Shown in pieces: positions 10,830 to 11,037 of a DNA stretch of 64,000 nucleotides. The DNA comes from Pseudomonadota bacterium. Lineage in GTDB: Bacteria > Pseudomonadota > Alphaproteobacteria > Sphingomonadales > Sphingomonadaceae. A program made the translations under genes and the position numbers. The stretch lies in assembly GCA_023436615.1 (NCBI GenBank), contig JAEZIO010000025.1, forward strand, positions 19,493-83,492, in the 5' to 3' direction. The notes under the pieces were generated by a model. The model saw only the letters and a program-made list of their open reading frames with translations, was not told the origin of the DNA and ran no database searches. Positions within the stretch are counted from its first letter, which is position 1. Every line of letters begins with the position of its first letter.

Positions 10830-10857
10830 GATATAGGGATTTTCAATGAGAAGTCAC
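10830..10857 (-). promoter_or_regulatory. predicted sigma70 promoter of gyrB (leaderless)
   Basis: Minus strand GTGACT-N16-TATATC-N6-ATG, no Shine-Dalgarno. Confidence 0.6.
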
Positions 10858-10882
10858 GCGCACGCGCGTACGCGCGCGCGTG
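10855..10882. repeat. 28-bp alternating pyrimidine/purine quasi-palindromic tract
   Basis: CACGCGCACGCGCGTACGCGCGCGCGTG read directly from the sequence. Confidence 0.95.
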
Positions 10883-11037
10883 AGTCGCAATGAATAAAAA
10901 GAGGGGTCTTGTTTCTTCTACTTTGTGCCCTTCGGGACGGCCCGCCCGGCAGAAGTTACGCGACCGCCAACCACGCTCCGTGTTCATCCACCAGCATAAA
11001 TCACATCGTGACCGCTGTAGGACAGCGCAAAACGCGT

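Follow-up and report, generated by a model that had tools for sequence, protein, structure and literature searches.

The gyrB promoter of a Sphingomicrobium-like member of the Sphingomonadaceae adjoins a 28-bp tract in which pyrimidines and purines alternate without a break, and this tract is very probably a selected cis element of gyrase expression. It lies in a window of 64,000 nucleotides (contig JAEZIO010000025.1 of assembly GCA_023436615.1, positions 19,493 to 83,492). Coordinates are window positions unless a contig label is given, and G000 denotes the window's own assembly. The sequence of the tract, its rarity, its pattern of conservation, its restriction to the promoters of gyrase and topA and its rank in a published energy model are what the analysis shows. 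Together they suggest that the tract may act as a lineage-specific sensor of supercoiling through a switch between B-DNA and left-handed Z-DNA (B-Z switch), a reading that we put forward tentatively.

Sequence, energetics and conservation of the gyrB tract

The tract, CACGCGCACGCGCGTACGCGCGCGCGTG, occupies positions 10855-10882 between a T (10854) and an A (10883). It is composed of the units CA CG CG CA CG CG CG TA CG CG CG CG CG TG, that is, ten CG, three CA/TG and one TA, and belongs to the Z-DNA-forming sequences as defined by Ho/Benham (alternating runs of 8 bp or more in which CG and CA/TG steps are frequent). Among all 83 contigs of the assembly (2,199,070 bases) it is the longest alternating run, followed by runs of 21, 20 and three of 19 bp. 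The number of runs of at least 28 bp expected in the assembly was 0.022 with a first-order and 0.0034 with a second-order Markov model, and a chance origin was rejected on this comparison (one 28-bp run against 0.003-0.02 expected). Alternating runs of at least 16 bp show no overall excess (29 observed against 21.6-56 expected). An assembly artefact was also rejected, since single-contig genomes carry such tracts too, as was a coding feature, since the tract is intergenic. The original prediction, which was made from the letters of this DNA, had described a perfect 28-bp alternation at this place; the sequence bears it out, and the genome scan shows that such tracts are rare rather than common (one run of 28 and the next of 21 in 2.2 Mb).

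Counted on the gyrB strand from the A of the ATG, the tract spans -59 to -32. Its last three bases, GTG, open the hexamer GTGACT, after which come 16 bases, TATATC, 6 bases and the ATG, and a Shine-Dalgarno sequence is absent. The ATG at 10823 was taken as the gyrB start because residue 4 of the product aligns with position 4 of the NF011501 profile. The promoter was assigned because it is conserved in the loci of the genus; a scan of 10700-11150 with the E. coli consensus called 0 promoters. The original prediction had placed a -35 hexamer, GTGACT, so that it overlapped the tract. The shared GTG and the conservation of the hexamer in the genus uphold this assignment, although the E. coli-consensus scan does not call the hexamer. 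The gyrB mRNA is probably leaderless, with its start at the ATG, because the gap between -10 and ATG is fixed at 6 bases and the Shine-Dalgarno sequence is missing; TATATC-6-ATG has the layout of leaderless mRNAs, in which the -10 lies about 6-7 bases before the start codon. Public sequencing runs matched with shares of 0.17 or less, all in contig form. Four RNA-library runs, as assembled contigs that cannot show transcription starts, covered conserved coding parts of gyrB from many organisms. Only two short contigs, both from one of these runs, extend beyond the ATG into the tract, one with an additional CG, and admixture of DNA is possible.

The energetics of the tract were calculated with the dinucleotide and junction energies tabulated in PMC3024258. 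By these values the flip costs 23.4 kcal/mol and removes about 5 turns. The assembly has 2350 sites with a critical superhelical density (critical sigma) of 0.055 or less, and the tract, at 0.0359, has the lowest (rank 1). A one-run equilibrium model was then applied that includes the real sequence context, a 5-kb or 10-kb domain and the B-Z transition only. At sigma values of -0.035, -0.040 and -0.045 the probability that the tract is Z-DNA is 0.015, 0.59 and 0.99 in a 5-kb domain and 0.11, 0.93 and 0.995 in a 10-kb domain, with midpoints at about -0.039 and -0.037, respectively. The modeled transition thus takes place sharply, within the interval from -0.035 to -0.045, and the tract holds at least 98% of the Z states. 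With only the B-Z transition considered, the tract is predicted to flip at an attainable superhelical density and ahead of the competing sites. The proneness to form Z-DNA under negative supercoiling that had been proposed for this tract is thus reproduced by the model, with a predicted flip near sigma -0.04 at the top-ranked site of the assembly.

The genus comprises more than 150 species-level genomes, and a gyrB match was found in 147 of the 151 searched; the closest named record is a Sphingomicrobium metagenome-assembled genome with 90% GyrB identity. Conservation was assessed in the 113 published genomes of this Sphingomicrobium-like genus with usable gyrB upstream sequence. The test zone was the 150 bases from the gyrB start, and 14,617 windows of the window's own assembly served as background. 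A site with critical sigma at or below 0.05 was found near the gyrB start in 97 of the 113 genomes compared with 197 of the background windows (1.35%), and one at or below 0.045 in 92 genomes compared with 0.14% of the background. Perfect alternating runs of at least 16 bp were present in 82 genomes (background, 0.19%), of at least 20 bp in 65, and of at least 28 bp in 31. The tracts measure 19-50 bp and differ mostly in two-base steps. GyrB identity among the tract-bearing species is 76-90%, and the DNA farther upstream cannot be aligned between species. The tract is therefore kept in place upstream of gyrB in the relatives, as the original prediction would have it, and its letters vary.

A GyrB tree was built with FastTree from 100 rows of the genus and 12 of the outgroup, leaving out G020 and the rows with incomplete genes, and the presence of the tract requires 4 state changes on it. 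A basal clade of 8 is devoid of the tract. The main clade of 89 rows retains it, the exceptions being one clade of 4 and two single rows. Among 16 loci listed under other genera of the Sphingomonadaceae, 15 have no run of at least 16 bp near the start, yet CCCTATAT-6-ATG is kept; a locus labeled Sphingomonas caseinilyticus has the full architecture, including the tract. In relatives from other families of the order the tract was found in 0 of 10. Since other Sphingomonadaceae keep the promoter layout without the tract, the promoter, apparently of the leaderless type, is to all appearances old, and the tract arose as a novelty within a single lineage.

To define what is conserved, 84 of 114 genus loci with GTGAC at -77 to -20 were aligned on this motif (anchored table). 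GTGAC stands 34 or 35 bases from the ATG in 73 of these loci, and the C-T-A-T-A-T-C around the -10 is 80-98% conserved. At positions -27 to +2 of the anchored table the purine/pyrimidine class is 75-99% conserved, and the identity of the base is looser (for example A38/G39 at -12 and C62/T19 at -9). Spacer positions +15 to +21 are 45-95% conserved. At -16 to -1, 186 minor alleles are of the transition type and 62 of the transversion type (ratio 3.0), and at -24 to -1 the counts are 269 and 143 (1.9); the ratio is 0.41-0.66 in the spacer, in the region past the -10 and in the far upstream DNA. Of 73 loci with a perfect run that ends at GTG, 60 have a run with an even number of bases, and the most frequent lengths are 28 (13 loci), 30 (7) and 24 (6). 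The orthologous tracts are made up of 65% CG, 26% CA/TG and 5% TA units, and the commonest breaks in the alternation are CC/GG steps. In the B-Z energy table of PMC3024258, CC/GG is the cheapest non-alternating step. Because class is conserved over bases, transitions dominate and dyad symmetry stays near the control level (see below), the selected property is, judging by these alignments, the alternation and neither the letters nor the dyad symmetry, with the hexamer ACGCGT as one exception.

Several variants of the gyrB region were observed. In a subgroup (loci L002, L010, L022, L038, L047, L055, L064, L091, L101, L127 and L128) the tract is followed by TTTCGTCAAGAC or TTGAGTGAGACTTTT and CCCTATC in place of GTGACTTC...CCCTATATC, and the distance from the tract to the -10 is about 10 bases greater. 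Several species (L048, L061, L071-L073, L126 and L166) carry tandem repeats of the GNCAACTTT type 5-15 bases upstream of the gyrB tract. These are absent at the window's own gyrB. In two relatives the contig ends within the gyrB start, and the tract region is missing.

Tracts at gyrA, topA and elsewhere

Five complete genomes of the genus were scanned for (YR)10, that is, ten pyrimidine-purine units. Of the 6 sites found, 3 are directly upstream of gyrB and 2 precede the gyrA start by about 100-115 bases; the remaining site is elsewhere. In a wider set of 69 published genomes the gyrA upstream region has the layout CTCGCGCG-(alternating)-GCGCGGGGTGGCG, about 16 bases and a CTAG-type -10, with the tract terminating 2-3 bases ahead of GTGGCG, and 61 of these genomes carry a tract whose critical sigma is 0.05 or lower. 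Where both loci could be compared (65 published genomes), 49 genomes have both tracts, 8 only that of gyrA, 2 only that of gyrB, and 6 neither. The median critical sigma, which includes three unpublished genomes, is 0.038 for gyrB and 0.042 for gyrA. The gyrB site is the more Z-prone in 41 of 49 genomes, and the two values are correlated (Spearman 0.39, p 0.006, n 49, uncorrected for phylogeny). A gyrA gene was not found in the window's own assembly, which is 93% complete; the only match is parC-like (C54:392-2383, 616 bits against a cut-off of 877).

At topA, 29 of 29 published genomes have an alternating run of 12-18 bp no farther than 60 bases from the start, compared with 0.76% of the background. 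In G000 this is the 16-bp TGTACGCGTATGCGTG (C24:65233-65248, outside the window), situated between a promoter-like pair and a Shine-Dalgarno sequence. The promoter-like pair, CTTGACG-N16-CCCCACCTT, resembles a sigma-32 promoter. The topA tract is downstream of the -10 and therefore over the likely transcription start, and it occurs in two fairly fixed forms, TACGCGTATGCGTG and CGCGCGTACGTACGTA (loci L277-L306). An enrichment of alternating tracts at topoisomerase genes, which the original prediction had envisaged, was found at the gyrase genes, with 5 of the 6 runs of at least 20 bp in five complete relatives at gyrB or gyrA promoters, and topA follows with its shorter tract. All the computational checks that the original prediction had named thus turned out in its favor.

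Two further observations concern gyrA. In L335, L336 and L345 (genomes G063, G065 and G095) the tract joins a -10-like GCTGCTAG directly and takes the place of the -35 and spacer. The gyrA loci L133, L135-L165 and L307-L346 have a conserved leader of about 110 bases after the promoter, with a GGGGG run and a GACAGGAnnnnCCTTGGC block around a TTG start; it may be a regulatory leader in its own right.

A supercoiling-sensing role and its alternatives

As the likeliest of the mechanisms considered, though at somewhat less than even odds, we hypothesize that the tract adjusts the expression of gyrB to the state of the DNA. In relaxed or moderately supercoiled DNA the tract would be B-DNA, GTGACT-16-TATATC would fire and leaderless gyrB mRNA would be made. 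When unconstrained negative supercoiling at the promoter passed about sigma -0.04, owing to the global level and to the negative supercoils thrown backwards by gyrB transcription, the 28 bp would turn into left-handed Z-DNA. The position of the tract behind the promoter would help, because transcription adds negative supercoils there. The flip would put the GTG of the -35 and a B-Z junction at the place where sigma region 4 binds and would absorb about 5 turns, and initiation would halt until supercoiling dropped. At gyrA, the similar tract a little upstream of the -35 would work in the same way, and the result would be homeostatic, relaxation-stimulated expression of both subunits. In this scheme we infer the formation of Z-DNA in the cell, the block to RNA polymerase, the action without a protein and the transcription start site. 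A more far-reaching version, which we consider somewhat unlikely, holds that supercoiling homeostasis is set by bare DNA. The gyrB and gyrA tracts would be protein-free, switch-like sensors whose flip point of about -0.04 is the set-point, tuned by transitions and two-base slippage and co-tuned between the subunit genes, and the topA tract would belong to the same circuit.

Several observations weigh against the B-Z switch. The gyrB tract is missing in 14 of the 100 genus rows of the tree and in 16 of the 113 published genomes, and it is therefore dispensable. The energy parameters are in vitro values. The unconstrained supercoiling of E. coli is usually quoted as about -0.025 to -0.03, and a threshold of about -0.04 lies beyond this level, so the flip would need local transcription-driven supercoiling or another set-point. 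Under high supercoiling a Z-flip at topA would silence that gene, the opposite of what homeostasis requires; the topA tract is also a weak Z-former, with a median critical sigma of 0.056 where 59% of the background windows reach 0.06. Repeats of this kind also change most often by transitions and two-base slippage when they evolve neutrally. Finally, ACGCGT occurs in 44 of 97 gyrB tracts compared with 16.1 expected when YR units are shuffled (z 7.6, a value inflated by shared ancestry), and orthologues repeatedly show the arms TCACGCG/CGCGTGA at the ends and GACTC as the left flank, so that some base-specific reading of the tract is possible.

The position of the topA tract and the enrichment of ACGCGT keep alive a second explanation, in which a regulatory protein binds CG-rich alternating DNA by its sequence or shape. 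Such a protein would activate (or repress) upstream of the -35 at gyrB and gyrA and repress over the topA start, setting gyrase and topoisomerase I oppositely. One position-dependent factor fits tracts that are found at three topology genes in differing positions, upstream of the -35 at gyrB and gyrA and downstream of the -10 at topA. The two fairly fixed forms of the topA tract and the recurrence of the arms, together with flanks of GACTC or GACTTC, are in its favor as well. The tract length of 19-50 bp in two-base steps leaves no fixed spacing between the arms, however, and the class is kept far better than the bases, with transitions tolerated at most positions, which is unusual for base-specific contacts. 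The fixed half-site spacing and conserved bases of a dimeric operator were not found, as the distance between the arms follows tract length and the interior bases vary, and in most orthologues dyad symmetry is at the level of shuffles that keep the alternating units. No candidate gene lies beside gyrB, where the neighbors are an endonuclease/exonuclease/phosphatase-family protein and a DEAD-box helicase. A search for a Z-alpha domain gave no match in the 93%-complete assembly, and since it gave none in 14 of 14 control genomes either, it is uninformative about absence. We consider such a regulator somewhat unlikely, and it is the main alternative to the B-Z switch. Should the tract nevertheless be read by a protein, that protein would be a new master regulator of gyrA, gyrB and topA and likewise worth finding.

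The original prediction had offered Z-DNA or a cruciform as the structure of the tract, and had pointed to its self-complementary ends. The ends are indeed self-complementary. As a single strand, the 30-mer formed with the two bordering bases folds into a stem of 13 pairs (one G.T) with a 4-base loop at -18.4 kcal/mol (z -3.28; 1 of 200 shuffles equal). If this near-perfect inverted repeat extruded as a cruciform under negative supercoiling, the four-way junction would block the -35. In this genome the 30-mer is more symmetric than unit shuffles that keep the alternation (z -2.06, p 0.025), which places it among the more symmetric cases, and the outer arms are conserved as an inverted repeat. 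Among the orthologues, in contrast, symmetry is hardly above the level that alternation itself brings: the mean z of hairpin stability against unit shuffles is -0.43 for gyrB and -0.40 for gyrA, and only 11% of the 97 gyrB tracts and 3% of the 61 gyrA tracts reach a p value of 0.05 or less. Dyad symmetry kept by selection was therefore not found, and of the two structures proposed the alternation behind Z-DNA is conserved and the cruciform half gains little support. By helical-repeat arithmetic a 30-bp cruciform takes out about 2.9 turns, compared with about 5 for Z-DNA of equal length. The nucleation cost of a cruciform is at least as high, and G+C-rich arms extrude very slowly. The AT-rich flanks that the original prediction had noted would help extrusion; they are present in this genome but not conserved in the relatives. 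A cruciform is accordingly an improbable explanation.

The same hairpin might instead act in RNA, as a terminator or roadblock that insulates gyrB from read-through out of the helicase gene, which ends 155 bases upstream on the same strand. A loose pattern scan does flag the hairpin and CTTCTCATT as terminator-like on the gyrB strand. The conserved T-run of a terminator is missing, with only two T positions after GTGAC in the 84 anchored loci and mixed bases thereafter. Moreover, the hairpin overlaps the -35 of the next gene, its strength is not conserved over controls, and the same type of tract is found upstream of gyrA in unrelated contexts, which makes this explanation very improbable.

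It is just as hard to credit that the tract is a preferred site of binding or cleavage for gyrase or another topoisomerase, through which the enzyme represses its own genes. Long tracts are restricted to the gyrB and gyrA promoters, and eukaryotic type II enzymes favor alternating purine-pyrimidine repeats; the topA tract would be left unexplained, and a preference of bacterial gyrase for such sequences finds no support here. A neutral, slippage-prone dinucleotide repeat kept by mutation bias alone would show the two-base steps and transitions that such repeats acquire spontaneously, but it is scarcely believable given the same promoter position in 97 of 113 species-level genomes despite the divergence of GyrB and the unalignable intergenic DNA, the independent tracts at gyrA and topA, and the near absence of runs of at least 20 bp elsewhere in five complete genomes.

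The switching-on of gyrase promoters by DNA relaxation is a long-standing open question. In E. coli, gyrA and gyrB are transcribed more when the DNA is relaxed (Menzel and Gellert 1987, as presented in PMC8422995), and a 2021 analysis argues that a discriminator mechanism cannot explain relaxation-driven gyrase promoters (PMC8422995). The promoters described here are like those of E. coli in that both subunit genes are concerned and in the proposed homeostatic logic, with more expression when the DNA is relaxed. The E. coli determinants map to a small stretch near the -10 and the transcription start, and an alternating tract is not known to take part. In the present genus a tract of 19-50 bp adjoins the -35, and the relaxation response is a prediction.

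A natural alternating purine-pyrimidine stretch beside a core promoter, the RY box of the haloarchaeal bop gene, was reportedly tied to supercoiling and a non-B structure by Yang et al. in 1996. This box is archaeal, about 11 bp long, said to be stimulatory and not repressive, and not at a topoisomerase gene. Unlike the gyrase tracts, it is not known to be conserved over about a hundred species. Engineered (CG)n inserts are said to have been used as supercoiling reporters in E. coli by Rahmouni and Wells in 1989. Sites of stress-induced B-Z transition are modeled by SIBZ (PMC3024258). The gyrase tracts share with such sites and inserts the class of sequence, the energetics, the switch-like flip at a critical superhelical density and the position upstream of a promoter; those, however, are predictions or artificial constructs, and the present tract is a natural element, very likely under selection, at the genes that set supercoiling. 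In Streptomyces, topA and gyrBA are supercoiling-sensitive and homeostatically regulated (PMC5055605). The likeness lies in the regulation of topoisomerase genes by chromosome supercoiling for homeostasis. We know of no alternating tract at the Streptomyces topA and gyrBA promoters. A literature search aimed at this question, from which subscription journals largely fell outside, brought up no report of such a tract at the gyrase promoters of bacteria or at the gyrB promoter of this genus. We file the system as a supercoiling-sensitive topoisomerase promoter with a new structure-prone cis element.

In about a hundred species, at the promoters of both gyrase subunits, the only property that appears to be conserved is the capacity for left-handed DNA, with a modeled flip near physiological supercoiling. 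The tract offers a concrete and easily tested mechanism, and a natural system that could give Z-DNA a defined bacterial function. If the B-Z switch is real, it would be the first natural B-Z transition that regulates a bacterial promoter as a switch, and it would explain in a new way how relaxation can stimulate gyrase promoters.

Features of the locus and minor observations

The features of the gyrB locus are collected in Table 1.

Table 1. Positions of the gyrB gene, its putative promoter elements and the alternating tract in the window
Feature	Position	Strand	Basis
Alternating pyrimidine/purine tract, 28 bp, predicted B-Z switch element	10855..10882	.	Sequence; longest run of the assembly; critical sigma rank 1
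Imperfect palindrome TCACGCG...CGCGTGA, 30 bp, enclosing the tract	10854..10883	.	13-pair hairpin fold; unit-shuffle test
-35-like hexamer GTGACT, its GTG being the 3' end of the tract on the gyrB strand	10852..10857	-	Sequence; GTGAC kept in the genus
16-base spacer with AAATCC at its end	10836..10851	-	Sequence; anchored table
-10-like hexamer TATATC (inside CCCTATATC), 6 bases ahead of the ATG	10830..10835	-	Sequence; conservation
gyrB coding sequence, 833 amino acids	8322..10823	-	NCBIfam NF011501, 1251.6 bits, full length

Upstream of gyrB, on the same strand, are the genes for a DEAD-box helicase (11038..12609), recF and dnaN. The gene order across the 11038-15179 region is dnaN, recF, DEAD-box RNA helicase (RhlE-like) and gyrB. 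In the relatives from other families of the order, recF adjoins gyrB, and gyrB has a Shine-Dalgarno sequence. In a search of Rfam the sole match, to symR, scored 22.1 bits where the gathering score is 61 (E 0.066); being below the threshold, it was taken as chance.

A dispersed element of G000 consists of a CG-rich alternating tract (CTCGCGCG...GCGTG) followed by two tandem copies of the 9-mer TTCGCTGCG; the GNCAACTTT-type repeats found upstream of some gyrB tracts resemble these 9-mers. Its copies are at C15:4965-5012, C37:9644-9691, C16:~340-410 and C48:3431-3466, one of them upstream of hppD, which diverges from a pterin dehydratase gene, another upstream of priA and two elsewhere, and they rank 2, 3, 11 and 25 in the assembly for Z-proneness. 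The priA copies of relatives carry other tandem 9-mers, e.g., two of GCCAACTTT. A wider regulon served by the Z-prone sites upstream of hppD and priA (ranks 2 and 3) was considered and rejected: the priA element is present in about 6 of 30 genus loci and is therefore a dispersed element, not a conserved operator. A 19-bp alternating run, ATACACGCGCGCACGTATG, is found at 54639-54657 of the window. It lies within a long reading frame (54072..56747, minus strand), so it is coding and unrelated to the promoter tracts.

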